Of a stretch of DNA of 24,000 bases, positions 1 to 23,588 are shown piece after piece; positions within the stretch are counted from its first letter, which is position 1; every line of letters begins with the position of its first letter. The stretch lies in assembly GCA_964353755.1 (NCBI GenBank), contig CAYGYC010000015.1, forward strand, positions 1 to 24,000, in the 5' to 3' direction. Made by a program: the position numbers and the translations under genes. Below the pieces are notes generated by a model. That model saw only the letters and a list, made by a program, of their open reading frames with translations, ran no database searches and had not been told where the DNA came from. This DNA is from an uncultured archaeon (lineage in GTDB: Archaea > Asgardarchaeota > Lokiarchaeia > Helarchaeales > HEL-GB-A).

Positions 1-21
1 ATTATAATAAGAACCTCTATT

Positions 22-447
22 TTGAGTGAGTTGGATATGTCAGTACGGAAAAAATACACTTATCGCGGCTATTCACTGGAAGATTTGCAAAATTTGCCGA
101 TGGATGATTTTATCAAGCTACTTCCGTCACGGAAACGGCGGAGTATGCTCCGCGGTCTTCCCCATCGACAAAAAAAGTTATTGGAAAGTTTACGGCGCGC
201 CCGACGCGCCTTGAAAAAAGGGAAGAAAGTGGTCGTTCGTACTCATGCGCGGGATTTTGTAATTACTCCAGAGCTAGTCGGCCTAACTATCGGCGTGCAT
301 AATGGGAAAGAATTTCTCGAGATAGAGGTAACTCCTGAACATATTGGACATTATTTAGGAGAATTTTCCCCCACGAATAAGCGAGTATCACATGGAAATC
401 CAGGCATTGGGGCCACTCGCGGTTCGCAATTCATTCCGTTAAAATAG
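22..447 (+). CDS. rps19: 30S ribosomal protein uS19
   Basis: 141-aa ORF ending GHYLGEFSPTNKRVSHGNPGIGATRGSQFIPLK, the uS19 C-terminal signature. First member of the conserved S19-L22-S3 order. The true start may be ATG at 37 rather than TTG at 22. Confidence 0.9.
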   Translation: MSELDMSVRKKYTYRGYSLEDLQNLPMDDFIKLLPSRKRRSMLRGLPHRQKKLLESLRRARRALKKGKKVVVRTHARDFVITPELVGLTIGVHNGKEFLEIEVTPEHIGHYLGEFSPTNKRVSHGNPGIGATRGSQFIPLK

Positions 448-462
448 GAGGATAAATGAAGA

Positions 463-933
463 ATGTGTCCTAATTTCGGCTATTCCATTACGGGATTGGA
501 TCCTGATAAGACAGCAATTGCCAGTGGGCGTGATATTCGCTGTTCACCCAAGGCTGCGCGAGAAGTGTGTCATACAATTAAAGGGATGATTATCGAAAAA
601 GCGAAGGTATTTCTAGATGGAGTTATTTTACACAAAAATGTAGTTCCCTTTAAACGATTCAATAAAAAGATAGCCCATCATAAGGGATTAGATCGATTTC
701 ACTGGGATTCGGGGCGATATCCCGTAAAAGCAGCCAAGGCAATCTTAGGTGTTATTAAGAATGCGGAGAATAACGCGGAATATAAGGGATTAGACTTAGA
801 TCGGGTGCGAATTGTTCATGCCGCTATCCAACAAGGAAGGAAATTAAAAAAGTATATTTCCCGGGCTTTTGGTCGATCCACCCCATATTATAAACCATTA
901 TCTCATATTGAAATTGTATTAGAGGAAGAATAA
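463..933 (+). CDS. rpl22: 50S ribosomal protein uL22
   Basis: 156-aa ORF with the archaeal L22 N-terminus GYSITGLDPDKTAIASGRDIRCSPKAAREVCHTIKGM. Sits in the conserved position after S19. Confidence 0.9.
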   Translation: MCPNFGYSITGLDPDKTAIASGRDIRCSPKAAREVCHTIKGMIIEKAKVFLDGVILHKNVVPFKRFNKKIAHHKGLDRFHWDSGRYPVKAAKAILGVIKNAENNAEYKGLDLDRVRIVHAAIQQGRKLKKYISRAFGRSTPYYKPLSHIEIVLEEE

Positions 934-958
934 TTAATAATGATGTAGAGGAACTCGT

Positions 959-1558
959 TTGCCAGCAATCGAACATTTTATTACGAAAAAGCTAAAAAAG
1001 AATCAAGTTGATGAGTTTTTTGCTAATGAATTGAAACGAGCAGGCTATGGCGGCGTGGATATCCTAAAAACGCCCTTAGGGACTCGGGTAATTATTTATG
1101 CAGCCCGTCCAGGTATAGTCATTGGACGCCATGGGAAAAATGTGCAGGATTTGACTACCGTTTTAGAAGAAACATATGGAGTTGAAAATCCTCAGATTGA
1201 AGTGTCAGAAATCGAAGTACCGGAACTGAACGCGCGGGTGATGGCCGAACGATTAGCGAGTCGCTTAGAGCGAGGAACTCATTATAGAAGATCGGCATAT
1301 TCCATAATTCGGAGAATTGCAGCGGCAGGTGCGAAAGGGGTGGAAATTCGAATTGCAGGAAAAATCAGCGGGCATCGAGCTCGGTACAAGAAATTTCGCG
1401 AAGGGTTTGTCGCAAAGTGTGGAGAACCCGCTTTTCTATACGTGGAGAAAGCGGTCTCCAAGGCAGTTTTGAAAAAAGGAGTGATCGGTGTTCAAGTTCG
1501 AATCATGCAGCCCACTGCTCTGCTCCCCAATGAAATAGAATTAAAAGTGCAATCATAA
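959..1558 (+). CDS. rps3: 30S ribosomal protein uS3
   Basis: 199-aa ORF with a KH-domain pattern (RPGIVIGRHGKNVQDL) and RLASRLERG. Lies between L22 and L29. TTG start per the ORF track. Confidence 0.9.
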   Translation: MPAIEHFITKKLKKNQVDEFFANELKRAGYGGVDILKTPLGTRVIIYAARPGIVIGRHGKNVQDLTTVLEETYGVENPQIEVSEIEVPELNARVMAERLASRLERGTHYRRSAYSIIRRIAAAGAKGVEIRIAGKISGHRARYKKFREGFVAKCGEPAFLYVEKAVSKAVLKKGVIGVQVRIMQPTALLPNEIELKVQS

Positions 1559-1581
1559 ATTGAATCAAGGAGAATGAAAGA

Positions 1582-1782
1582 ATGGCTCGCCTTAAAAACA
1601 AAGAAATTCGGGAAATGACTGAAGCGGAGCGCGAAAAACGGTTACAAGAACTCCGGACAGAATTAAGTAGCCAGCGTGCTATTCTATCGGCTGGTGGTGC
1701 CGTAGAAAATACGGGAATCGTCAAAATACTTCGCCGCTCAATCGCGCGCATTCTCACGATAATGCGGGAAGAAGTACGATGA
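1582..1782 (+). CDS. rpl29: 50S ribosomal protein uL29
   Basis: 66-aa helical protein (KNKEIREMTEAEREKRLQELRTEL) in the conserved position after S3. Confidence 0.85.
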   Translation: MARLKNKEIREMTEAEREKRLQELRTELSSQRAILSAGGAVENTGIVKILRRSIARILTIMREEVR

Positions 1783-2069
1783 TCATCACGCCAAAAACAC
1801 TTATTTACCATTGTCTTATTGGATTAAAGGTGAAAATTGTCCAAAGTTCTAACTCACAATATCTTAATTTGAGTGGAAAAATAGTTGATGAAACAAAAAA
1901 TACACTTATCATTAAGAATGAGGTAAAAGAAATGCGAATTCCGAAAAAGAATTCGGTTTTTCAATTTTATCTCTCAGAAAATTACGCAGTTGAAGTGAAG
2001 GGTGTCCTCCTGTTAGGTCGCCCGGAAGAAAGAATTAAAAAGAAAATAAGTTATAAATGGAATAATTAA
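1779..2069 (+). CDS. rnp1: RNase P protein component 1 (Rpp29/Pop4 family)
   Basis: 96-aa ORF whose start overlaps the L29 stop (ATGA). The pattern LIGLKVKIVQSSN..GKIVDETKNTLII..GRPEERIKK matches archaeal Rpp29. This is the archaea-specific slot between L29 and S17. Confidence 0.75.
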   Translation: MIITPKTLIYHCLIGLKVKIVQSSNSQYLNLSGKIVDETKNTLIIKNEVKEMRIPKKNSVFQFYLSENYAVEVKGVLLLGRPEERIKKKISYKWNN

Positions 2070-2083
2070 AGAGGTAATTTAAA

Positions 2084-2413
2084 ATGGTTAGAAATATTGG
2101 GCTTGAAGTAGAAGCTCCTCGAAAAGAATGTGAGGACCCAAATTGTCCCTTTCATGGATCGCTCCCAATCCATGGAAGAATTTTTAAGGGAACCATTGTA
2201 AAACGGAAAATGCATGATTCCTGTGTAGTTCGTCGAGATTATCTTCGTTATATCTCTAAATATAACAGGTATGAACGTAAACACAGTAATATTGCATGTC
2301 ATGTTCCACCCTGCATTGAAATTAATGTAGGAGATAATGTGAAACTCGCAGAATGCCGCCCCATAAGTAAAACCATTTCCTTTACGATCATCGAATTAAC
2401 TGAAACAGAATAA
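2084..2413 (+). CDS. rps17: 30S ribosomal protein uS17
   Basis: 109-aa ORF containing CEDPNCPFHGSLPIHGRIFKGTIV..YERKHSNIACHVPPC..GDNVKLAECRPISKT, typical of archaeal S17. Confidence 0.9.
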   Translation: MVRNIGLEVEAPRKECEDPNCPFHGSLPIHGRIFKGTIVKRKMHDSCVVRRDYLRYISKYNRYERKHSNIACHVPPCIEINVGDNVKLAECRPISKTISFTIIELTETE

Positions 2414-2417
2414 AGAA

Positions 2418-2424
2418 TTTTTTT
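2418..2424 (+). terminator. oligo-T tract after rps17 (candidate archaeal terminator)
   Basis: T7 run 5 nt after the S17 stop. Archaeal RNA polymerase terminates at oligo-T tracts. It is followed by a strong TATA-like element (TAAAATATATATAG, 2454-2467). Confidence 0.35.
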
Positions 2425-2524
2425 ATCTAATTCTCCCCTTTAATTGAATCGAGTAAAATATATATAGAGAGAGGCGGTTAAACTGGCTCAGAAGAAAACA
2501 GTTTTTGAACGATTAGAAGATACA

Positions 2525-3277
2525 ATGGGTGAATTGCAAAAAAATCTTGAAACTAAATTAACAAATATCCAAGCGGCGATTACCACTCTCAAAGAGGAAA
2601 TACCTCGATCCATTGGACAAAATCTAATGTCCTTTTCGGATATGATCGGTGCTAAAATTGAGGATATGGAGGAATCTATTAAGAGGATTACCATTTCTTC
2701 TGGAGGAACTGCGGATCCTACTATTGGAACCGTAAAACAAGATTTAGGTGATATAAAAACAAGTATTAAAAATCTTCAAACGGCTATTCAAAGTATTAAA
2801 ATTGAGGCAGCTGCTACATCACCTCATATTACACTCGCTTCACCTATTTCAGCCCCAACTATACCAAAATCGTCTTCATTACCATCGCCGCCCCCAACCG
2901 CCCCTACTACTCCGCACCTCACTCCAATTCCAGTAAGTCCTTCTCAACCCGCTCCAGCTCCTGCACGCGTAAGTAGTGTCAAAACAACTCCTTCATCTTC
3001 TGCCCCAGCAGAAGGACCCGGATCAGATGTTACCAATTTATTAGATACGATTAAGCAAAAAGCAAAAAGTGGTCTCAGTGCCATTGCTTTGGCAAATGAA
3101 ATGGAACAGATACGCGACACCATAGTTAAGGTATATCGCTGGCACCCGGCTTTATATGAATTAGCAACCTTTGCCCGCCGATTGAAAAAATTCCCGGAAG
3201 GAGCCCCACCGGACGCCGAACTTTTTAACTTATTATTAGAGAAAGTTGAGGAATGGAAAAATCGAGTGAGCGGTTAA
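2525..3277 (+). CDS. hypothetical protein: N-terminal coiled-coil, Pro/Ser/Thr-rich linker, C-terminal helical domain
   Basis: 250-aa ORF with no competing ORF. The N-terminus is heptad-like (LETKLTNIQAAITTLKEEI..IKNLQTAIQSIKIE). A low-complexity linker follows (SLPSPPPTAPTTPHLTPIPVSPSQPAPAPA). The C-terminal segment is WHPALYELATFARRLKKFPEG. I recognise no family. Confidence 0.6.
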   Translation: MGELQKNLETKLTNIQAAITTLKEEIPRSIGQNLMSFSDMIGAKIEDMEESIKRITISSGGTADPTIGTVKQDLGDIKTSIKNLQTAIQSIKIEAAATSPHITLASPISAPTIPKSSSLPSPPPTAPTTPHLTPIPVSPSQPAPAPARVSSVKTTPSSSAPAEGPGSDVTNLLDTIKQKAKSGLSAIALANEMEQIRDTIVKVYRWHPALYELATFARRLKKFPEGAPPDAELFNLLLEKVEEWKNRVSG

Positions 3278-3540
3278 AAAAAATTTCCCTTTTTCAACCT
3301 TTTTAAAATTTAGGTGAAAATTGAGAAACAATTAAAAACTACAATTAATTATTTGAATAGAAAGTATTCATCTTAAAATCATAGGTTCTGGTAATTATAG
3401 ACCACAGAACGATTTCTGTACCAAGAACTTATTCACCTCTCCAAAAGATTAGGAAATTATGAAAGATTTATTCATCTTGAATAAAGTAATGATGAATAAA
3501 TAAAAGGTAGTTATGTGTAAATAAAAGATGGCGATGAATA

Positions 3541-4387: not shown

Positions 4388-5130
4388 CACGCAAAGGTGA
4401 AAAGAAGCAGTTAAAAAGGACAGAAGCTCCAATCTTTTGGGATATTAACCGGAAAGCAAATACCTTTACCGTTAAACCTTCTCCTGGGCCCCATGCAATC
4501 AGTAATTGCATCCCGATTCTGACAATTATGCGCGATCTGCTCCATCTTGCAGATACCGCGGGGGAAGCTAAAAAAATCATTTCTGCAGGTAATATTAAAG
4601 TCGATGGGGTAATTAGAAAAAATTACCAACATCCGGTTGGATTAATGGATGTCTTCGAAATTCCAAAAATTAATCTTACTTATAGGGTTATACCCGCCGC
4701 ACGCAAAGGATTGATTCTCCATCCGATTGAGGAAAGTGAGACCCAATTTAAACTCTGTCGAATAGAGAATAAAGTAGTTTTGAAAGGAGGACATATTCAA
4801 TTAAATCTTCATGATGGAAGAAATATTCTGGTACGGGTACGTGATCCAACTAATTCTGATGAAGATAGTTATAACACAAAAGATGTTTTAAAAATTGGAT
4901 TACCGAAACAAGACGTATTGGAACATATCAAATTTGATGAGAATATAATTTCTCTTGTAATTGCAGGGCGGAATGTTGGTCTGACTGGAAAGATTATCAA
5001 AATCAATAAATTGTTTGGTCCCCATGCATCCACTGTTACTTTAGAAAGTGATGGTAAAACCTTCGAAACTGCATTGGAATACGCGTTCCCGATTGGTTTA
5101 GATAATTCGATAATTTCATTGCCCCATTAA
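4384..5130 (+). CDS. rps4e: 30S ribosomal protein eS4
   Basis: The sequence MTRKGEKKQLKRTEAPIFWDINRKANTFTVKPSPGPH is the eS4 N-terminus. ATG at 4384 overlaps the L24 stop (ATGA). The track ORF starts further upstream at 4333. Confidence 0.9.
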   Translation: MTRKGEKKQLKRTEAPIFWDINRKANTFTVKPSPGPHAISNCIPILTIMRDLLHLADTAGEAKKIISAGNIKVDGVIRKNYQHPVGLMDVFEIPKINLTYRVIPAARKGLILHPIEESETQFKLCRIENKVVLKGGHIQLNLHDGRNILVRVRDPTNSDEDSYNTKDVLKIGLPKQDVLEHIKFDENIISLVIAGRNVGLTGKIIKINKLFGPHASTVTLESDGKTFETALEYAFPIGLDNSIISLPH

Positions 5131-5741
5131 TGGAGAGGATCACTATGGATGATGAAGTAGTAAGTTATTTTACTGAGGAAGATAAGGCAAAGGTTCTGGA
5201 AGAATGGAAAACCCAGCCGATGCGCCAGCCTAAAATTGCGAAAGTTTCTGTACATATGGGTGTGGGAGCCAGTGGAGATAAACTCGAAAAAGCAGTGAAC
5301 GTCTTAGAGGGCTTAACTAAACAAAAACCTGTAAGACTGTTGGCCAAAAAAACAATCCGTGATTTTGGGATCAAGAAACGAGAACCCATTACGGTAAAAG
5401 TCACCTTACGCGGAACTAAAGCGATAGAATTTCTGAAACGGGCGCTAACAGTTGTTGACAATAAAATCAAATATTCTAGCCTAGATCAATATGGAAATTT
5501 TGCTTTTGGGATAAAAGAACATATTGAAATGCCTGAAACGGCGTATGACCCAACGTTGGGTATATTTGGTCTGGATGTTTGTGTGAATATGGAACTCCCC
5601 GGTCATTCCATTTCAAGAAGGCGAAAATATAAGCATAAAATTCCGCAAACTCAAAGGTTAAAGAAACTTGATGCTATGGTTTTTCTAAAGACCCAATTAG
5701 GTGTAGATATTGTGAAAGAGTATGTAGTATCCTATTATTAA
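5130..5741 (+). CDS. rpl5: 50S ribosomal protein uL5
   Basis: 203-aa ORF containing PKIAKVSVHMGVG..REPITVKVTLRG..FGIKEHIE..GIFGLDVCV. An alternative start is ATG at 5145. Confidence 0.9.
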   Translation: MERITMDDEVVSYFTEEDKAKVLEEWKTQPMRQPKIAKVSVHMGVGASGDKLEKAVNVLEGLTKQKPVRLLAKKTIRDFGIKKREPITVKVTLRGTKAIEFLKRALTVVDNKIKYSSLDQYGNFAFGIKEHIEMPETAYDPTLGIFGLDVCVNMELPGHSISRRRKYKHKIPQTQRLKKLDAMVFLKTQLGVDIVKEYVVSYY

Positions 5742-8647: not shown

Positions 8648-9295
8648 GTGATAGATATGACATATGAAAAATCACTGGATGATTGGGTCCCTAGAACAAG
8701 AATCGGAAAGATGGTGAAAGAGGGATATATAACTTCCATCGAAGAAATATTCCAATCATGCTTAACCATTAGAGAACCGGAGATTGTAGATTTACTGCTG
8801 CCTAATTTACAGGAAGAAGTTCTCGCCATTAACCTCGTGCAAAAACAAACTGATGCCGGAGAAAAATCGAGGTTTCGAGCGACCGTTGCTATCGGTAATA
8901 AGGATGGGTATATTGGACTAGGAGAAGGAAAATCTGCGGAGATTGGCCCTGCCATTCGGGTGGCAATTATTCACGCAAAACTAGCAATAATCCCCGTACG
9001 ACGCGGCTGCGGATCATGGGAGTGCACGTGTCATGAACCCCATTCATTACCTTATACCGTAAAAGGAAAAGCTGGTAGCATCCGGATTTCTTTAAAACCG
9101 GCTCCTCGAGGTGCCGGGTTAGTTTCTGCAAAAACGCCGCGGGTTGTCCTAGATCTTGCGGGCATTAAAGATGTCTGGTCCGTGGCAAAGGGGCATACCC
9201 GCTCTACGACTAATTTCGCTAAAGCAACCTATGACGCCTTACGTAATACTTATAAAATGATTTCTCCCCACTTTGATTGGGAACGTACCTCTTAA
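8648..9295 (+). CDS. rps5: 30S ribosomal protein uS5
   Basis: 215-aa ORF containing WVPRTRIGKMVKEG..FRATVAIGNKDGYIGLGEGKS..GAGLVSA..GIKDVW. Start is GTG at 8648 or ATG at 8657. Confidence 0.9.
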   Translation: MIDMTYEKSLDDWVPRTRIGKMVKEGYITSIEEIFQSCLTIREPEIVDLLLPNLQEEVLAINLVQKQTDAGEKSRFRATVAIGNKDGYIGLGEGKSAEIGPAIRVAIIHAKLAIIPVRRGCGSWECTCHEPHSLPYTVKGKAGSIRISLKPAPRGAGLVSAKTPRVVLDLAGIKDVWSVAKGHTRSTTNFAKATYDALRNTYKMISPHFDWERTS

Positions 9296-9533
9296 TTTTC
9301 TTCTTTCCTTTTAAGTTTTATTTGTTAAGTTGCTCATCTTTGTTGTCTACATTTATTGCTCATCTTATAATAACCCGTCCCCTCTTTCATAGGCTCTTCT
9401 TTCTGCTCTTGTTATTTATAACGGTATTTTTACAACCAAAAAGTTCTTTAAGAATAATAATTTTACCATTGGATATCAAACTTAAAAAGGAATAAACTTA
9501 GTGCCAGAAACGTTATTATAGGAGTGTATTTAA

Positions 9534-9941
9534 ATGAGTCTGCGTCCCGGTGGTGTAACTGGAATCGCCGTTCTCTTCTTAATCGCTGCAGCTATTTTTC
9601 TTGTACTCGGCGTTATTTGCGCCTTTGCAACAGCCACGGCAATGCTTTTCTGGTTTAATAATATTCACGGTCTCATTGCAGGATCGTTTATTGGTCCTTT
9701 CTATGTCGATCATCTCATGGACAATCTATTAAACCCTACTACCTGGGTCATTGCAGGGGTTATTTTCATCGGTATCGGCGCTGCTGACATTCTTACTTTC
9801 TTGGGATTGCTGAAATTAAAGAAATGGGGCTATTGGCTGTGCATTATTATCTCTATTCCGCTGATTATAGTGATCGTCGGCATAATCTTTATTTGGTACC
9901 TGCGTAAAGATGAAGTGAAAGCTGCTTTTGATATTAAATAA
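9534..9941 (+). CDS. small integral membrane protein (about 4 predicted TM helices), unknown function
   Basis: 135-aa ORF with four long hydrophobic stretches (IAVLFLIAAAIFLVLGVICAF, WVIAGVIFIGIGAADILTFLGLL, WLCIIISIPLIIVIVGIIFIW). It is GC-richer than its AT-rich flanks. Confidence 0.6.
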   Translation: MSLRPGGVTGIAVLFLIAAAIFLVLGVICAFATATAMLFWFNNIHGLIAGSFIGPFYVDHLMDNLLNPTTWVIAGVIFIGIGAADILTFLGLLKLKKWGYWLCIIISIPLIIVIVGIIFIWYLRKDEVKAAFDIK

Positions 9942-10081
9942 GAGGAGAACGATATAACTTCAACCCTTTTTTTTATTTTTTTTGCATTAACAAATAGCTT
10001 TTTTCCATCTTCAAAGTGTAAAACGAATAGAATAGAAAGAAGAAACGCAAATTAAATAGATATAAAAAGAGAGGAGACTAT

Positions 10082-10606
10082 TCAAACCATTAATTTAATT
10101 AAGGTTTCGATTTCTTTATCTTTTCGAAAGCCTAATTCGCCCTGATCGTGGACTGATCGTTTAATGGTCCGTTTAAATCCTCCCTTAGGAGGGGTAAGGC
10201 GAAAGACGGGTTTAATTTTATCAAAATCAGTCAAGTTCACTTCTAGAGTGGCCAGTGCTTGGGCAAAATCATCAATAGTCTCGTATTTTGTATATTTCTT
10301 CACCAGCGCATCAGTCAATTTAATGTTTCCTCTAAGGCGCCCACGTTTTTTAAGCAGCAAGGCAATGGTTTCAGCCCCCAGTTCGCCCCACGAAATATAA
10401 TCCTTAGCTTTTTGAAGCATACCTCGATAGCTCTCCCGGTCGTCAATGAAAACTAGGTGATTTTTCTTATGAAGTCTCAAAAATTGCATGGTCTCTTTGA
10501 TATTTTTTCGAACTCCTACACTACCTCTTATTCGAATAACGGCTAATCGTTTTGTTGGTGCCTCTGCACGTTTTTCTTCCACGGCTTTTGATGCCATATA
10601 ATCCAC
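10082..10606 (-). CDS. rpl30: 50S ribosomal protein uL30 (L7e type), inverted relative to the operon
   Basis: 174-aa minus-strand ORF containing LAVIRIRGSVGVRKNIKETMQFLRLHKKNHLVFIDD..YISWGE, the uL30 fold signature. Confidence 0.85.
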   Translation of the reverse strand: MDYMASKAVEEKRAEAPTKRLAVIRIRGSVGVRKNIKETMQFLRLHKKNHLVFIDDRESYRGMLQKAKDYISWGELGAETIALLLKKRGRLRGNIKLTDALVKKYTKYETIDDFAQALATLEVNLTDFDKIKPVFRLTPPKGGFKRTIKRSVHDQGELGFRKDKEIETLIKLMV

Positions 10607-14276: not shown

Positions 14277-15326
14277 ATGGATCAATCCCAAGCTACCCTA
14301 CCATGCGATAAAGTTCGTGAGATTCTTATTAAATCTGAAGACACCACGAATCCGCAATTCGGTCTAAATCCAAATCAACGTCCTATCGAAGAACTTTTCA
14401 ATTATGGTATTGTTAATCTCAATAAACCTGCAGGTCCCACCTCCCATGAAATAACCGCTTGGGTAAAAAAAATATTACATATTGACAAAGCAGGGCATTC
14501 CGGCACCCTAGACCCCGGGGTAACGGGTATTTTACCAGTGGCGTTAGGTCGTGCTACCAAAATCCTGAATTCCCTTCTTACCGCAGGGAAAGAATATGTT
14601 TGCATCATGCATCTTCACAATTCTGCCACGAAAGACCAAGTTCTTACCACTATCAAAGAATTTATTGGACCCATCTACCAGAAGCCGCCTGTCCGCTCTT
14701 CGGTTAAACGCCAATTGCGAATTCGCCATATCTACTATCTAAACGTGCTAGAATACCTTGATAACGACATTTTATTCCAAGTCGGTTGCGAAGCGGGCAC
14801 GTATATCCGAAAACTGTGTTATGATATTGGGGAAGCCGTCGGGTCAGGCGCCCACATGCGAGAACTCCGCCGGACGCGGGTCGCGACTTTTCGCGAGGAT
14901 GAAACCCATGTCAGTCTCCATGATTTGCTCGATGCCTATACTTTCTGGCAAGAGCAAGGAGAACAGAAATATTTACGTAAATGTATTCAACCCATTGAAT
15001 TTGCCATGCGCCAATTCCCCAAAATTTATGTGCGCGATTCAGCCATCGATGCGATCTGCCATGGCGCTAGTTTAACAGCCCCTGGGATCCTGAAAGTGAG
15101 TACGGGCATTCAACCCAAGACGGAAGTCGCCATTCTCTCCTTGAAAGAGGAACTGATTGCTACGGGCGTGTCCCTCTCGACCAGTAACCAAATAATTGAA
15201 GCCGACCACGGGATTATTGTCCGCGTTGATGCCGTCCTCATGAAGCCCGATACCTATCCGCCGTGGTGGAGCTATAAAAAGAATCGCGAAAAAAAACCTG
15301 AACCCTCCGGCGCCAGCCATGACTGA
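14277..15326 (+). CDS. cbf5: H/ACA RNP pseudouridine synthase Cbf5 (TruB family, with PUA domain)
   Basis: Contains GIVNLNKPAGPTSHEITAWVKKIL and the catalytic-Asp motif HSGTLDPGVTGILPV. The C-terminal part is PUA-like (IYVRDSAIDAICHGASLTAPGI). The ORF is uninterrupted, so this cbf5 has no intron. Confidence 0.9.
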   Translation: MDQSQATLPCDKVREILIKSEDTTNPQFGLNPNQRPIEELFNYGIVNLNKPAGPTSHEITAWVKKILHIDKAGHSGTLDPGVTGILPVALGRATKILNSLLTAGKEYVCIMHLHNSATKDQVLTTIKEFIGPIYQKPPVRSSVKRQLRIRHIYYLNVLEYLDNDILFQVGCEAGTYIRKLCYDIGEAVGSGAHMRELRRTRVATFREDETHVSLHDLLDAYTFWQEQGEQKYLRKCIQPIEFAMRQFPKIYVRDSAIDAICHGASLTAPGILKVSTGIQPKTEVAILSLKEELIATGVSLSTSNQIIEADHGIIVRVDAVLMKPDTYPPWWSYKKNREKKPEPSGASHD

Positions 15327-16755: not shown

Positions 16756-17781
16756 TTATAATGCTCCAATAGAAAAATTATTTCTATCTATGATTTCAAT
16801 TTCTTTGAGGTTCGAATTGCAACTAGGACATTTTCCTTTAATTTTTACCCATTCCAGAAGATGTTCTCTATGTGCCATATTATGACATAGGGGGCATGTT
16901 CTTAGTTCTTCAAATTCATTGATTGATAAATGACATACACCACAAATACCCACAATTTTCTTACTATTGATATAAACAAAAGACTGCTCTGCTTGTTCAT
17001 GAGAGGAGTAAGAGGAATGGTCACCTTCAATTGGACTTTTCTCAAGTCCTGATTTGCAAGGTTCATCTAAAGAAAAGCATTGACAATTCCCACATAATTT
17101 TACATTTTTTAGTCCATTTTGCAAAATTGTTCTTTTCAGTTTCTTGTCAATTAAATAATAATCTGAATTTAAATATCCCAGCAAGGTAAATTCAATATCC
17201 TGAATGGTTCGTATTATACAATCCTTATGCCAAAGGCCATTAGAGAAAATATAAGTGGGAATAAAATAGAAAATCATACTATGCAGAATTTCACACGCAA
17301 CCCTGCGTACCTCAGGATTTCGATCTATTAGGCAATATATAATTCTGTGCATATATGAAGTTGCATCAAAATTTTCACCAAATTTAATTTTTTCCCACGA
17401 ATTCAAGATTTCTAATAAACTTTTTTTCCGTATTTTAGCCCGTGGGTCTCGTAATTTCACAAGAATCGGAGGGCCCTTCAAAAGGGGATCAACAAAACCT
17501 AAACAGACATAAAAAAGCCCATATTTTCGAATTTTTAAGAGTAAATAAATGTTTAAAGGAAAAAAAACTATCGTAAATCCCAGTGGAAATGGAAATAAAT
17601 ACCATCTTTGTTGAATTATATACATTATAATCGCCCATAGAAAATAACCAATTAATATTGAACAAATTATTTGATAAGAAACAAAAACTAAAACTGGATG
17701 TTGTACCTTATCCGCATTGCTAGTTATTTTTATCTCATTTCTTTTAATTCCATTAATAATTTGATAGGGCATGCTATTCAC
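16756..17781 (-). CDS. membrane-anchored protein with C-terminal RING-H2-like zinc finger
   Basis: 341-aa ORF. The N-terminus has ~3 hydrophobic helices (LVFVSYQIICSILIGYFLWAIIMYII, LFPFPLGFTIVFFPLNIYLLL). The middle has a HEAT-like segment (DRNPEVRRVACEILHSM). The C-terminus is CGVC-x12-CPLCH-x3-H-x2-H-LLEW-x6-CPSC. This follows RING cross-brace spacing, including the W and CPxC hallmarks. Confidence 0.55.
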   Translation of the reverse strand: MNSMPYQIINGIKRNEIKITSNADKVQHPVLVFVSYQIICSILIGYFLWAIIMYIIQQRWYLFPFPLGFTIVFFPLNIYLLLKIRKYGLFYVCLGFVDPLLKGPPILVKLRDPRAKIRKKSLLEILNSWEKIKFGENFDATSYMHRIIYCLIDRNPEVRRVACEILHSMIFYFIPTYIFSNGLWHKDCIIRTIQDIEFTLLGYLNSDYYLIDKKLKRTILQNGLKNVKLCGNCQCFSLDEPCKSGLEKSPIEGDHSSYSSHEQAEQSFVYINSKKIVGICGVCHLSINEFEELRTCPLCHNMAHREHLLEWVKIKGKCPSCNSNLKEIEIIDRNNFSIGAL

Positions 17782-18708: not shown

Positions 18709-19926
18709 ATGATATTAAAAGAAACTTTGAGACAAGTAGTCAAATCTCAGAAATCAGAATTGCTTAGGTTTGAATACGGGGTAGAGAGAGAAAATTTAAA
18801 TGAAATAGACTTAAAACTTTCGTTTGCAATAGTGTTATCTGGGATTAGAAGGTGCGGCAAAAGCACTTTATTACACCAATTAATTAAAAAAACAACTAAT
18901 TATTGTTATTTTAATTTTGAAGATACAAGACTTATCAACTTTGAACCTGAAGATTTTGAGAAACTTAACGACATTTTTATGGAAGACAATCAAGAGTGTG
19001 AATACTATTTTTTTGATGAAATACAAAATGCCCCAAAATGGGAAATTTTTGTACGAGCTATGCTTGATAAGCAAAAAAAATTTATAATTACAGGCTCGAA
19101 TGCATCGCTACTTAGTAAAGAATTAGGGACACGCCTTACGGGTAGGCACTTGAGATACGAGCTTTTTCCATTTTCATTCAAAGAAATGTTGGTATTTACT
19201 AATAAGAAACCTTGCATAGAATCATTTGAGGAATATCTGAACAAAGGGGGCTTCCCCGATTATCTTAAATTTAATAAATCTGAAATACTTCAAGAATTAT
19301 TGAATGATATAATTGCACGAGATATTATTGTTAGACATCGGCTTAGAGAAGCAAAAACAGTAAAGGACATGGCATTGTATTTATTGACCAATGTTGGAAA
19401 AGAATTTTCCTATAATGGTTTAAAGACCCTTTTCAATTTAGGGTCAACTAATAGTGCACTATCTTTTGTTTCTTATTTTGAAGACAGCTATCTCTTATTT
19501 ACTATTCCAAAGTTTGATTATTCGCTTAAAAAGCAATTAGTCAATCCAAAAAAAGTTTATGCAATTGATAATGGCCTGTCGAATGTCAATTCAGCCTCAT
19601 TTTCTTTAGATAAAGGCAGAATGCTTGAAAATATTGTATTCTTGCATTTGAGAAGAAAATATAAGGAAATTTTTTACTTTAAAGAAAAAAATGAATGCGA
19701 TTTTCTACTGAAAGAAAAAAACCAGATAATATCTGCCATCCAAGTCTGTTATGAACTGCACGAAGATAATAAGAAGCGAGAAATTGATGGCATAATAGAA
19801 CCTATTACTAAATTTGACTTAAAAGATGGATTAATATTGACTTATAATCAAGAAGATGACTTTAATATCGCCGGCAAAAAAATACTTGTTAAACCTGTAT
19901 GGAAATGGTTGCAGGTTTCCCCTTAA
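18709..19926 (+). CDS. AAA+ ATPase of the COG1373 type (AAA_14 N-domain plus DUF4143-like C-domain)
   Basis: 405-aa ORF with Walker A (SGIRRCGKSTLL) and Walker B-like (YYFFDEIQ). The overall layout is typical of this widespread, often island-borne ATPase family. Confidence 0.8.
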   Translation: MILKETLRQVVKSQKSELLRFEYGVERENLNEIDLKLSFAIVLSGIRRCGKSTLLHQLIKKTTNYCYFNFEDTRLINFEPEDFEKLNDIFMEDNQECEYYFFDEIQNAPKWEIFVRAMLDKQKKFIITGSNASLLSKELGTRLTGRHLRYELFPFSFKEMLVFTNKKPCIESFEEYLNKGGFPDYLKFNKSEILQELLNDIIARDIIVRHRLREAKTVKDMALYLLTNVGKEFSYNGLKTLFNLGSTNSALSFVSYFEDSYLLFTIPKFDYSLKKQLVNPKKVYAIDNGLSNVNSASFSLDKGRMLENIVFLHLRRKYKEIFYFKEKNECDFLLKEKNQIISAIQVCYELHEDNKKREIDGIIEPITKFDLKDGLILTYNQEDDFNIAGKKILVKPVWKWLQVSP

Positions 19927-20038
19927 TCATTGTCTTATTTTACTAGATACCTGAATATAAAATTACAACAACTCGTATTAATCCAAACGAATTTTTAAAA
20001 AGAAATGAATGGGAAAAAGGAAAAACAATAAAAAATGT

Positions 20039-20252
20039 TACAGCGAAGCGACCTAACTGCGGAAATTCGGAGAACAACTCAATGACCATGGGGCGTAATG
20101 GCTTGAAGCGGACCATCCCACCTTCGCCCTGCTTGAGGAAATCGGGCTTCTCTTGAACGACCTGACCTGTTCGCGGATCTGTTTTACTGATGATTTCAGC
20201 GAATTGGCAGGCTACCTGTGCTGTATGCGCATGAATAATGGGGGAATAGCCG
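20039..20252 (-). pseudogene. EF-1alpha domain-III gene fragment (duplicate of 20739-20952)
   Basis: 20046-20252 matches 20746-20952 at an offset of exactly 700 bp, with one mismatch (20239 T vs 20939 C). In minus sense it encodes [71 protein letters not shown]. It has no start codon and no native C-terminus. Confidence 0.85.
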
Positions 20253-20274
20253 CTGGGGGCTCCCGAATGTCACG

Positions 20275-20628
20275 GTGATCTTCCGGGATGGTCCGAACTG
20301 GAGCATCCCGCTCCACTCGGCGGAGCCCCTTTGGATCGACATCACCAGTGACGAGCCGTATATGACGCTGGAGTTGAACTACACCATTGATGGGCAGTGG
20401 AGGGAGTTTACCATCGCTCCCCAAAGTACCCAACATTACTATTACGAGATCGAGTTTGATGTAGAGGGAGAGGTCACCTATCAGGTTAATATTGAATACA
20501 ATGGGGTCGTGGTGTGCGCGGATACGATCACCGTAGCAGGGGTGCCAGGTATTCCCTTCGGGACGTGGTGGCTTCTTGGGTGCTTAATATTAATAATAGG
20601 GTATAAAAAAAAAAGGAGATCTAAATAG
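20275..20628 (+). CDS. probable C-terminal fragment of a surface protein (beta-rich domain plus C-terminal anchor/sorting-signal-like tail)
   Basis: 117-aa ORF with a GTG start and no signal peptide. It begins 23 nt after the repeat edge. It ends VPGIPFG-TWWLLGCLILIIGY-KKKRRSK, which is a short motif, a hydrophobic helix and a basic tail. Confidence 0.4.
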   Translation: MIFRDGPNWSIPLHSAEPLWIDITSDEPYMTLELNYTIDGQWREFTIAPQSTQHYYYEIEFDVEGEVTYQVNIEYNGVVVCADTITVAGVPGIPFGTWWLLGCLILIIGYKKKRRSK

Positions 20629-20632
20629 AAAT

Positions 20633-20641
20633 AAAAAAAAA
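20633..20641 (-). terminator. T9 tract immediately downstream of the restored EF-1alpha stop
   Basis: An A9 run on the plus strand, so T9 in tuf sense. It lies 6 nt after the TAA at 20649-20647 that ends the spliced reading frame. Confidence 0.45.
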
Positions 20642-20646
20642 TTTGA

Positions 20647-22039
20647 TTATTCTTTCTTTTTCACTTCTTTCACGATGCCAACAGCCACCGTGCGGCCCAG
20701 TGCGAAGTACCCTAGGCAGTCTGGGATACTATATCGCGTACCGCAAAGCGACCTAACTGCGGAAATTCGGAGAACAACTCAATGACCATGGGGCGTAATG
20801 GCTTGAAGCGGACCATCCCACCTTCGCCCTGCTTGAGGAAATCGGGCTTCTCTTGAACGACCTGACCTGTTCGCGGATCTGTTTTACTGATGATTTCAGC
20901 GAATTGGCAGGCTACCTGTGCTGTATGCGCATGAATAACGGGGGAATAGCCGACGGCAATGGCGGTTGGGTGGTAGATGACAATGACTTGGCCAACGAAT
21001 TCGTCTACGACAGTCGGGGGATTATCCACCTTCCCGGCAACGTCGCCACGTTTGATATCTTTCACTGAAAGCCCTCGAAGGTTAAAGCCGATGTTATCAC
21101 CAGGCACTGCTTGTGGGATCTGCTCATGGTGCATATATTGTGATACGTACATCATGCACGAATCATCTCAATTGATCGGCATTCGCTCTGGACGCCGCCA
21201 GGCATGAAGATGAGTTTGTCGCCAACCTTCAGTATGCCGGTTTCGACACGACCGACGGGAACGGTGCCGACTCCAGTGATTTTGTAGACATCCTGGACTG
21301 GGATGCGGAGGGGTTTATCGGTGGGCTTGGGAGGGAGTTCAAAGGCATCTAGGGCCTCGATTAAGGTGGGACCCTTATACCAGGGCATTTTGTCGGATTT
21401 AGCCACCAAATTATCCCCTGTCCAGGCAGAGACAGGGACGAAATTGATTTTATCTGCGGGGTAGCCTACGATTTTCAAGAGGTCTTTCATTTCATTTTTG
21501 ACTTCATTGTAGCGCGCTTCTTTCCAGCTGTGGGTGTCCATTTTATTGATAGCCACGACGAGTTGGTTAATACCGAGGGTTCGGGAGAGGAAGGCGTGTT
21601 CACGGGTTTGGCCGCTGGCGGAGATACCACCTTCAAATTCTCCTTCTCGGGAGGAGACAACCAGGATGGCAGCATCAGCTTGTGAACTTCCGGTGATCAT
21701 GTTTTTGACGAAATCCCGATGACCCGGCGCATCGATCAGGGTGTAATAGTACCGTTTCGTATCGAAGCGGCGGAAAGCTAAGTCGATAGTAATTCCACGT
21801 TCTCGTTCTTCCTTGAGGCGGTCGAAGATGAAAGCAAATTTGAAAGAGGCATCTTTCATTTGCTTGGCGGTTTCTTCCATATCCCGCATTTCTCGTTCCG
21901 AGATACCACCCGTTTTAAAGAGGAGATGACCCATCATCGTGCTTTTACCATGATCGACGTGACCGATGATGATCAAGTTCAGATGCGGCTTCTTTTCTTC
22001 TTTGCCCGCTGTGGCTGCTGGCTTCTTTTCTTTGCTCAT
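20647..22039 (-). CDS. tuf: translation elongation factor EF-1alpha, split by two 32-nt BHB-type introns: join(22039..21167, 21134..20732, 20699..20647), 442 aa
   Basis: G1 motif [10 protein letters not shown]3 motif DAPGHRDF, G4 motif NKMD. The frame breaks at SIEM/HHE and at RFAVRD/MGRTVAVG. Removing 21166-21135 and 20731-20700 restores both motifs and the C-terminus [19 protein letters not shown]. Exon lengths are 873 + 403 + 53 nt, giving 443 codons. Confidence 0.85.
20700..20731 (-). other. candidate BHB intron 2 of tuf (32 nt)
   Basis: RNA sequence UAGUAUCCCAGACUGCCUAGGGUACUUCGCAC. The central 4-bp helix is GCGA (20737-20734) with UCGC (20705-20702). The bulges are UA|U and AC|U. The inner helix has 7 bp and the outer helix pairs at 6 of 7 positions. 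Confidence 0.65.
20746..20952. repeat. 207-bp direct repeat, copy inside functional tuf exon 2 (partner at 20046-20252)
   Basis: Read directly by comparing the two 60-nt-per-line blocks, which are offset by exactly 700 bp. There is a single mismatch. Confidence 0.9.
21135..21166 (-). other. candidate BHB intron 1 of tuf (32 nt)
   Basis: RNA sequence AUGAUUCGUGCAUGAUGUACGUAUCACAAUAU. The central 4-bp helix is AUUG (21172-21169) with CAAU (21140-21137). The bulges are AG|A and AU|A. The inner helix has 4+4 bp and the outer helix has 2 bp. Confidence 0.65.
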
Positions 22040-22388
22040 TTTTCAAATCCTCCATATTTTTGTTTGGATACTAACTAGATTTTAAAATAACACTCAATTT
22101 TTAATTTCTTCAATGGTTTTGGTCGGCTATTACGGCAGTTGCCAAATCGAACTTTTTGGGGTAATAACCGGAACCATCCAAGAGATTAGTTAAGTAGTAT
22201 TTAAAATCGTTTTTAGATTTTTTGGATAGGATTAAAACCTTATAGTTGAATCAAGAAAAAGCAATAGTGGTATATAAATTTTCTTTTATTGGGGGTTTTC
22301 ACATCCAAGGCAAGGAGTCTTTAAGGGAGTGAGTTTTAAAAGGAGAGGAAGGGGGAGAATAGGAAAGGAATTGAGGGGAGAAAGATTC

Positions 22389-23012
22389 TTAGCGCGCGGA
22401 GGCAGCGATGCGCTCTTTTTCCTCTTTGCGTCTAACTGCGGCGCTTTTATTATCATTTGCGGCAGCTAAAATTAACTCATTGGAAATGAGTTCCTCAATC
22501 GTTTGGATCTTATTGAAGCTACTTCGCCAACAGGTTTCGACGATATATTTCAGCGAGAGATCTACTCGGCGTTGGGGAGCGATATCGACGCTCTGTTGGT
22601 AAGCGATTCCCCCGTAGCTAATGCGGGTAGTTTCTTCGCGCGGTGCGCAATTTTCAACGGCATTAACGAGCACCTGAATGGGATTCTTATTCATTTTCAA
22701 GAAAATGATTTTAAAGACGTTATTCACCAATTTAATGGTGCGTAATTTTTTACCCGCCAAGCGCCCACTCTGGCGTCCGCCCGCTTTTTTCCGGGTAGTA
22801 CCAGGGGCCATTAAGCGGTTAACAAAGCGCTCAATAATATTCACTTGTGATTTACGGAACCGTCTATGCTCATGCCGCCCATGCGTATGGCAAGTGATAT
22901 TGGGATTGAGGGTAACATAATTTCGTAGCCCGGCATCTTTGACCTTCACTTCGGTGATGTCCCATTCATTGAAGACTTTAATTTCTGCCATGCCATCATT
23001 CGCCTTTTTCAT
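22389..23012 (-). CDS. rps7: 30S ribosomal protein uS7
   Basis: 207-aa ORF containing PIQVLVNAVENCAPREETTRISYGGIAYQQSVDIAPQRRVDLSLKYI..AAVRRKEEKERIAASAR. Confidence 0.9.
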   Translation of the reverse strand: MKKANDGMAEIKVFNEWDITEVKVKDAGLRNYVTLNPNITCHTHGRHEHRRFRKSQVNIIERFVNRLMAPGTTRKKAGGRQSGRLAGKKLRTIKLVNNVFKIIFLKMNKNPIQVLVNAVENCAPREETTRISYGGIAYQQSVDIAPQRRVDLSLKYIVETCWRSSFNKIQTIEELISNELILAAANDNKSAAVRRKEEKERIAASAR

Positions 23013-23186: not shown

Positions 23187-23588
23187 ATGCAAATGTTAAA
23201 TAAGGGAAAAGTATATGATCGAATTCTGGCAAAAATGATTCAGAAGATGAGTTGCGGAAGCGTGATGCTACTAAATAATGATGGCTTAAAAATTTCAGAG
23301 CAAACATGTGGCTTCACCGATTCAGATGGCATTTGGGGTTCTGCCAACAGCTTATTATCGGCGGGAGAACGGGCGCTCTCCGAATTGTGTCAAAGTAAAA
23401 ATCAATTTATTAATCAAATTTTTGAATCCGAGACCTTTTTTCTCTCGGTAGGGCGAGTTAACGATGATATCAGCTATGCCATTCTCTCCTCCAAAGTGAA
23501 CAAAATTTCCATGGGCATGTTGCGGTTGATTGCGCAGAATCTGAAAGATCAAGTGAAAGTGGTTGATGGCGCTTCAGCATCTCCCTAA
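23187..23588 (+). CDS. Roadblock/LC7 (MglB-like) domain protein, tentative
   Basis: 133-aa ORF with the family layout. It has a beta strand (GSVMLLNNDGLKISEQ), a helix (WGSANSLLSAGERALSEL), then INQIFESETFFLSVGRVNDDISYAILSS and a final helix. This is pattern recognition only. Confidence 0.45.
   Translation: MQMLNKGKVYDRILAKMIQKMSCGSVMLLNNDGLKISEQTCGFTDSDGIWGSANSLLSAGERALSELCQSKNQFINQIFESETFFLSVGRVNDDISYAILSSKVNKISMGMLRLIAQNLKDQVKVVDGASASP

Follow-up and report, generated by a model that had tools for sequence, protein, structure and literature searches.

Two 32-nt inserts in the tuf gene of an uncultured Asgard archaeon as likely bulge-helix-bulge introns

We analysed a stretch of 24,000 nucleotides (nt) from an uncultured archaeon of the Helarchaeales (positions 1 to 24,000 of contig CAYGYC010000015.1, assembly GCA_964353755.1), hereafter called the window, in which the tuf gene, encoding elongation factor EF-1α, carries two frame-breaking inserts of 32 nt each. 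The gene occupies 22039..20647 of the minus strand, with its ATG at 22039 and its stop codon at 20649..20647, and lies directly downstream of the gene for ribosomal protein S7 (22389..23012). When the inserts, at 21166..21135 and 20731..20700, are both deleted, a single open reading frame (ORF) of 442 codons is obtained. Both are likely to be pre-mRNA introns of the bulge-helix-bulge (BHB) type, spliced by the splicing endonuclease and the RtcB ligase like the cbf5 intron of Crenarchaeota. An initial annotation of this DNA had proposed one intron; the site that it described is real, but the second insert was missed, and both have to be removed to obtain the full gene. The parts of the gene are listed below, where 3vmf denotes the aEF1α structure of Aeropyrum pernix and L166 (Logan SRR29366204) a related contig with an insert-free tuf.

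21167..22039, minus strand: tuf exon 1, codons 1-291 (MSKEKK...ECRSIE), in ORF 21152..22039; aligns to 3vmf from residue 6 onward
21135..21166, minus strand: putative intron 1, 32 nt, AUGAUUCGUGCAUGAUGUACGUAUCACAAUAU; contains an in-frame UGA; exact indel relative to L166; its deletion joins SIE to MHHE
20732..21134, minus strand: tuf exon 2, codons 292-425 and base 1 of codon 426 (MHHEQ...GRFAVRD and an A), in ORF 20712..21155; collinear with 3vmf
20700..20731, minus strand: putative intron 2, 32 nt, UAGUAUCCCAGACUGCCUAGGGUACUUCGCAC; exact indel relative to L166; its deletion matches 18/18 homologues
20647..20699, minus strand: tuf exon 3, from the UG of the Met codon to VKKKE and the TAA stop at 20649-20647, with a T-rich run after it

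The first frame break falls between ORF 21152..22039 and ORF 20712..21155, both on the minus strand, just where it had first been placed, and the unspliced gene would yield a product of 295 aa ending at the in-frame UGA, a point on which the initial annotation was also right. Removal of intron 1 alone does not restore the gene and gives a wrong C-terminus (...RDIVSQTA and a stop). The second break is found near the 3' end, where ...GRFAVRD runs into IVSQTA and a stop codon, and the expected continuation sits in a different frame. The 442-aa protein obtained by deleting both inserts aligns with 3vmf with E = 7e-191 and without a gap at either junction, where the structure reads RSIEMHYQQ and RFAMRDMNRTVGIGIV. 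The nearest EF-1α proteins in a collection of 5.8 billion proteins are labelled Helarchaeota or Promethearchaeota (77-84% identity), and 18/18 of these nearest homologues read CRSIEMHHEQ and RFAVRDMGRTVAVG at the two positions. The claim that deletion of 21166..21135 joins SIEM to HHEQ thus agrees with both the homologues and the structure. We found no lesion in tuf other than the two inserts.

Intron 2 splits the Met codon 426 of RDMGRT between A and UG. As this codon has to be joined across the insert, the removal would have to take place at the level of nucleic acid and not by ribosome hopping. Programmed ribosomal bypassing, of the kind known from T4 gene 60 or from the 'byps' elements of Magnusiomyces mitochondria, has some appeal at site 1, where the insert is short (32 nt), a matching AUG stands before and after it as a formal take-off and landing pair, and the reading frame meets a stop codon shortly past the take-off site. 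At site 2, however, the split Met codon offers no matching take-off and landing codon and RDMGRT could not be produced, while the BHB geometry and the 4-bp helices between exon and intron would be left unexplained at both sites. We know of no bypassing described in archaea, and we regard this explanation as scarcely credible.

The geometry of both sites was assessed by a strict test that requires a central helix of 4 bp between two bulges of 3 nt, with the ends of the intron placed before the third nucleotide of the first bulge and after the second nucleotide of the other. Cleavage between the second and third bulge residues has been verified by cDNA for cbf5 (PMC2738675), and the minimal helix lengths of the hBHBh' form were taken from general knowledge and from PMC5829648. 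The two motifs are as follows.

21132..21174, minus strand: BHB motif 1, outer helix 21174-21173/21133-21132 (CA/UG, 2 bp), inner hairpin 21165-21141
20691..20745, minus strand: BHB motif 2, outer helix 20745-20738/20698-20691, 7/8 pairs

At site 1, all four pairs of the central helix are formed (AUUG 21172-21169 with CAAU 21140-21137), the bulges are AGA (21168-21166) and AUA (21136-21134), each with the boundary after its second nucleotide, and the inner helix consists of UGAU/AUCA (4 bp), one U-U mismatch and then 6 bp, CGUG(CA)/(UG)UACG. At site 2, the central helix pairs GCGA (20737-20734) with UCGC (20705-20702), again 4/4, the bulges are UAU (20733-20731) and ACU (20701-20699) with boundaries at the same position, and the inner helix of 7 bp is formed by AGUAUCC (20730-20724) and GGGUACU (20712-20706). 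Thus, both sites show the pattern of 3-nt bulge, 4-bp helix and 3-nt bulge with the exon-intron boundaries inside the bulges. Cutting after the second bulge nucleotide gives junctions identical to those of the 18/18 homologues, of the aEF1α structures and of the insert-free L166, and the claim that this rule removes exactly 32 nt at site 1 was borne out in this way.

The two motifs differ in strength. Site 2 is a strong hBHBh' motif: its unconstrained minimum free energy (MFE) fold has -27.8 kcal/mol (z = -2.47), and all three helices (outer, central and inner) are formed in it, together with a 5' bulge of 3 nt and a 3' bulge drawn as 5 nt. Site 1 is canonical but weak, since it reaches the hBHBh' form only minimally, and it could count as a relaxed form; a 51-nt fold shows its central and inner helices as well as the 5' bulge. 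All the elements that had been described there, i.e., the helices, the bulges, the U-U mismatch and the 2-bp outer helix, are present, and the description of the motif as a canonical hBHBh' holds for the geometry but has to be tempered as regards strength. A scan of the window with the strict geometry (24 kb, both strands, lengths 14-60, 2.24 million combinations of position and length) returned 167 BHBs of site 1 quality or better, i.e., 7.4e-5 per (position, length), so that as a free-standing motif site 1 stands at chance level. The quality of site 2 was reached by only 2 of the 2.24 million combinations (~9e-7), and site 2 itself should be one of these. The probability that a motif of the site 1 type lands on a boundary fixed by homology is about 3e-4, with 4 equivalent registers taken into account. 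Site 1 is therefore beyond chance through its coincidence with the homology-fixed boundary, and the motif alone is not. A looser scan gave 564 matches on one strand; free-standing scans of either kind are too permissive to serve as evidence and were used for the background rate.

We also considered self-splicing introns of group I or II, whose ribozyme core takes hundreds of nt. With inserts of 32 nt, these types are excluded by size. With a threshold as loose as E<=1, a search of 19900..22200 for known RNA families (Rfam) returned nothing except a chance match to a long non-coding RNA with 15.9 bits.

In the mechanism that we propose, the pre-mRNA would fold locally so that the exon-intron boundaries lie in 3-nt bulges with a 4-bp helix between them. 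In each bulge, the splicing endonuclease EndA would cut behind the second nucleotide; a ligase of the RtcB type would then join the exons and probably circularize the 32-nt introns, the spliced mRNA giving a normal EF-1α of 442 aa. Unspliced or half-spliced mRNA would give a truncated or mis-terminated protein, and EF-1α production would thus depend on the tRNA-splicing machinery. The EndA of Asgard archaea has been reported to be of the (αβ)2 type with a broad-specificity L1 loop (PMC5829648), and in some Asgard lineages introns are found in 92-95% of tRNA genes (PMC11291895).

The inserts may also be removed from the RNA by another nuclease or ligase, or splicing may be inefficient or conditional and act as a regulatory gate on EF-1α, analogous to HAC1/XBP1. 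RtcB-type ligation of mRNA occurs in XBP1 splicing, an essential gene that relies on a tRNA-processing enzyme invites regulation, and the weak BHB of site 1 would be in keeping with such a scheme. Both sites, however, fit the canonical 3-4-3 geometry recognized by EndA, with no other enzyme required, and no result points to regulation. We therefore consider these variants distinctly unlikely in comparison with ordinary splicing by EndA and RtcB.

The closest relative in our comparison, L166, carries an intact tuf of 442 aa and shares a 90% cluster with the 147-aa ORF of the window. Its protein shares about 98% identity with the product predicted after splicing, and the two genes have 97% nucleotide identity, with 39 differences in 1326 nt. 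In a global alignment, the coding sequences differ by exactly two indels, 21166..21135 and 20731..20700, and the alignment with relatives that had been suggested for site 1 thus found a gene without exactly the 32-nt segment. The codon differences comprise 29 synonymous and 6 non-synonymous ones, which indicates that the interrupted gene is under purifying selection.

The differences between the window and L166 are not evenly spread. As many as 13 of the 39 stand no more than 20 nt from a junction, where 6% would be expected (binomial P = 3.4e-7), and each of these 13 is synonymous. Around site 2, the window reads TTT GCG GTA CGC GAT ATG GGC CGC ACG, with the insert after the A of ATG, and L166 reads TTC GCT GTA AGG GAT ATG GGG AGA ACA. 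The codon choices of the window provide the central helix (CGC) and the complementary outer helix GCGG...CCGC. With the intron of the window, its own exons form 11/12 of the central and outer pairs and the L166 exons 6/12, while the exons of five other insert-free relatives form 7-10; among 884,736 synonymous variants, the codon set of the window ranks in the top 3.5%. The effect is small at site 1 (6/8 pairs, top 17%), where TCA, in place of TCC in L166, contributes one outer pair out of two. The clustering of synonymous changes that build BHB helices, mainly at site 2, lends indirect support to an adaptation of the exons to the inserts. More distant insert-free relatives could not be used to polarize the changes, their synonymous sites being too saturated.

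A fossil copy of the 3' part of tuf allows the direction of two changes to be read.

20039..20252, minus strand: fossil copy of tuf codons about 353-423, 211/214 identical to 20952..20739, at an offset of exactly 700 nt

The fossil copy reads TTC GCT, the pre-insert state also found in L166, and the active gene reads TTT GCG, which is therefore derived. Over the 214 nt, the active copy has only two derived changes, 20745 C>T and 20742 T>G. These two synonymous changes fall within the 8-nt strand of the BHB 2 outer helix, where they create a U-A and a G-C pair.

Several points weigh against reading the inserts as spliced introns. EndA cleavage, RtcB ligation and efficient splicing in vivo are inferred from the sequence; the endA and rtcB genes lie outside the 24-kb window, and a second, intact tuf may exist in the genome beyond it. 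The fold of site 1 is marginal: its outer helix has only 2 bp, the BHB model in a 55-nt context has -7.5 kcal/mol against -9.8 for the MFE structure, i.e., 2.3 above it, and its local stability equals that of shuffled sequences (z about 0). No orthologue of either insert was found among metagenome contigs, fragmentary protein calls and collected loci. A co-conversion tract from a diverged donor could partly explain the clustering of exon changes, although an insert converted from an intron-bearing donor would still be a real, inherited intron. Finally, a segment of 593 nt (20041..20633) immediately 3' of tuf, which contains the fossil copy, is absent from L166 and speaks for a local rearrangement. 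Every computational test that was run nevertheless agrees with the BHB-type interpretation put forward in the initial annotation.

In the remainder of the 593-nt segment, which measures about 380 nt, there is a remnant of an ORF (20275..20628, plus strand) that has a hydrophobic C-terminal tail and no Pfam match. The fossil copy together with the DNA downstream of it corresponds to the L166 sequence minus 67 nt, with a TAA microhomology at the join, and L166 is 97.5% identical in the upstream flank and 99.2% in the downstream flank. We take these features as signs of a recombination or duplication event that affected the 3' end of tuf and ended 8 nt from intron 2. A further strain-level indel is found near 17756..17762 of the window, where L166 has ~510 nt extra (4764..5275) with a 174-aa ORF without a Pfam match, adjoining the start of the RING-finger gene.

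Such a setting raises the question of whether tuf has recently become a pseudogene through two small insertions, with an intact copy elsewhere and BHB-like folds that are incidental. Our view covers 24 kb of the genome, the tuf fragment and the 593-nt extra segment directly downstream attest to local rearrangement, the gene is intact in a very close strain, and the BHB of site 1 is no better than chance when taken as a free-standing motif. However, the gene stands at the canonical S7-tuf position in synteny with its relatives, has no further lesion and shows the 29:6 ratio given above; helix-building synonymous changes would not be selected in the exons of a dead gene, and the joint chance of two 32-nt BHB inserts that both restore the frame exactly is well below 1e-8. 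An inactivated gene is thus unlikely, and we retain the interpretation of the two inserts as introns.

Related Asgard contigs carry a further stop-containing insert in tuf, at the P-loop, between GHVD and HGKST.

L081, 5956..5985 (the same in L082 and L083), and L086, 3182..3211: P-loop insert of 30 nt, from two JGI samples and one ENA assembly
L084, 1538..1569, and L085, 465..496: P-loop insert of 32 nt, from two further JGI samples

The MFE fold of the L081-family insert is an exact hBHBh' of -18.9 kcal/mol, with an outer helix of 5 bp (GCCAU/AUGGC), the central helix GUCG/CGAU, an inner helix of 10 bp and the bulges AUU and AUC, divided after the second nucleotide. The insert of L084 and L085 lies at the identical codon with a different hairpin, and a Val>Ile exon change turns the central G·U into A-U; the BHB is thus kept with different hairpins in two lineages. 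Due to this insert, three homologues are called as proteins of 409 aa (MMGHL...) without the GTP-binding loop, and near-identical insert-free proteins occur in the same clade (P0002, P0003, P0006 and P0012). In this Asgard group, BHB inserts thus occupy at least three sites of tuf, and at each site some strains carry the insert while close relatives lack it.

The recurrence of the P-loop insert also bears on the possibility of an assembly or sequencing artefact, e.g., a chimeric join or a mixture of strains. The contig was assembled from a metagenome, the nearby 214-nt repeat might confuse assembly graphs, and the closest strain lacks the inserts. Errors of this kind would nevertheless not yield two unique 32-nt hairpins that, precisely in the cleavage registers, are complementary to the upstream exon over 4 bp, and the flanking exon codons differ coherently from those of the insert-free strain. 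As an analogous tuf insert was found in the separately assembled L081, L082 and L083 and, in a second lineage, in L084 and L085, we judge an artefact very improbable and the inserts to be genuine features of this DNA.

A metagenome scan with exon 2 returned four close loci. L087, L088 and L089 are uninterrupted (80-83% protein identity) and L086, with its P-loop insert, is the same contig as L081; the two inserts of the window were carried by 0/4 of them. No repeated or mobile copies of the insert sequences were present in 1.37 Mb of compared sequence. Exact look-ups of the 295-aa and 147-aa ORFs of the window returned no recorded gene position for either. A scan of reference genomes with the full protein returned uninterrupted genes only (60-68% identity, Bathyarchaeia and others); it was saturated by the universal peptide HRDFVKNM and was uninformative on the presence of inserts. 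Fragmentary EF-1α calls in other lineages were rejected as split tuf genes. In L167, L169 and L170 (ENA ERZ250394xx-5xx 'contig_') and in L168 (GCA_038854545.1), both EF-1α and EF-2 are fragmented, by frameshifts in the first three and by a run of N in the last. Fragments of this sort mimic split genes and call for caution in automated searches for protein-gene introns.

From these comparisons it may be proposed that mini-introns of the endonuclease type are actively gained and lost in essential protein genes of the Helarchaeota-like Asgard branch, that the exon codons co-evolve with them and that the process is ongoing at the population level; we give this broader proposal an even chance. If it holds, protein-gene splicing by the tRNA machinery would be under way in the closest known prokaryotic relatives of eukaryotes, a lineage relevant to eukaryogenesis. 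We found no other split genes in the window or in its syntenic relatives, and the ribosomal protein genes, secY and cbf5 are intact, the cbf5 of the window being uninterrupted at 14277..15326 (349 aa). In L083, cbf5 (8810..9834) consists of two ORFs of 220 and 60 aa, while L081 (8810..9835) and L082 have one ORF of 341 aa; with a span 1 nt shorter, the split in L083 probably reflects a frameshift or an error in sequencing and not an intron.

Among known systems, the cbf5 intron of Desulfurococcales and Sulfolobales (Crenarchaeota; PMC2738675) is the nearest, and the tuf inserts are, by analogy, mechanistically the same kind of element. In both cases, a small BHB intron lies inside a coding sequence and falls in a strongly conserved codon (in cbf5 that of the catalytic Asp, in tuf those within SIEMHHE and RDMGRT), the cleavage sites fall between the second and third bulge residues (predicted for tuf), reliance on a hetero-oligomeric (αβ)2 EndA is known or, for tuf, expected, and the presence among relatives is sporadic. 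The two differ in gene and phylum, here tuf/EF-1α and Asgard, in the number of introns, of which tuf has two per gene and a third site in relatives, and in the scale of variation, as presence and absence vary here at the level of strains with 97% nucleotide identity. Splicing of cbf5 was shown by cDNA and in vitro, while that of tuf is predicted. In the searched literature, BHB introns inside archaeal coding sequences are known from cbf5 only (PMC2738675), which PMC7714728 also states as of 2020. No report of BHB introns in EF-1α or in Asgard protein genes was present in the literature that we searched, in line with the initial annotation, which knew cbf5 as a precedent and no report for EF-1α. 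The cbf5 pre-mRNA intron was reportedly described by Watanabe in 2002 and by Yoshinari in 2006, PMC2738675 being the study of Yokobori from 2009, and the hBHBh' motif is said to go back to Marck and Grosjean in 2003.

The BHB introns of archaeal tRNA and rRNA share with the tuf inserts the arrangement of 3-nt bulge, 4-bp helix and 3-nt bulge, the presumed processing by EndA and RtcB, a similar size range and the occurrence of multiple introns per gene. Unlike these, tuf is an mRNA with a reading frame, and the exon halves of its helices come from synonymous codons, not from tRNA stems. Non-canonical tRNA introns are abundant in Thermoproteales and in Atabeyarchaeia/Freyarchaeia (PMC11291895). 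The HVO_1309 intron of Haloferax volcanii (PMC7714728) is likewise a splicing-endonuclease substrate that belongs to an mRNA and not to a tRNA or rRNA; it differs from tuf in that it lies in the 5' untranslated region and leaves the ORF intact, in a euryarchaeon with an EndA of the α'2 type. HAC1 and XBP1 resemble tuf in having a short, spliceosome-independent mRNA intron, cut by an endonuclease at defined loops and joined by an RtcB-type or tRNA ligase with a change of frame, but their nuclease, Ire1, cuts stem-loops and is regulated by stress.

If confirmed, tuf would be the second host gene for BHB introns in a coding sequence, one far more highly expressed and strictly essential, as well as the first case in Asgard archaea and the first gene with two such introns. 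The strain-polymorphic series of three sites would then catch the gain and loss of introns almost in the act. It would offer a system for studying the origin of protein-gene introns in cells that lack a spliceosome, the adaptation by which exons come to hold splice signals in their synonymous sites, and the means by which an archaeon with coupled transcription and translation keeps unspliced mRNA from being translated. The output of EF-1α could also be coupled to the capacity of the tRNA-splicing enzymes. At a practical level, gene callers split or truncate such genes, giving ORFs of 295 aa and 147 aa here and N-truncated proteins of 409 aa in relatives, and marker-gene sets and phylogenies built from Asgard metagenome-assembled genomes can thus be silently corrupted by a mis-called tuf.

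Besides tuf, the window holds an archaeal cluster of ribosomal protein genes, secY and cbf5, a RING-finger protein (ORF 16756..17781) and a weak, sub-threshold Roadblock/LC7-like match (23187..23588), a gene content that fits an Asgard archaeon. In L081, the region upstream of S7-tuf (1..3491) contains a compact ubiquitin-system cluster with two UQ_con E2-like proteins, ubiquitin, a RING finger and a ThiF E1-like protein, which is typical of the eukaryotic-signature genes of Asgard archaea. Between S17 and L14 of the window, an ORF of 250 aa (2525..3277, plus strand) with weak, below-threshold Pfam matches (Baculo_PEP_C, FlaC_arch) has a coiled-coil-like N-terminal part and a middle part rich in Pro, Ser and Thr. 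Within the plus-strand ribosomal protein cluster (S5 ... L15, secY), the region 9534..10606 has the L30 gene (10082..10606) on the minus strand and, between S5 and L30, an unrelated ORF for a predicted membrane protein with a weak DUF2127 match (9534..9941), an arrangement suggesting that this operon, which is normally rigid, has undergone a local inversion or insertion.

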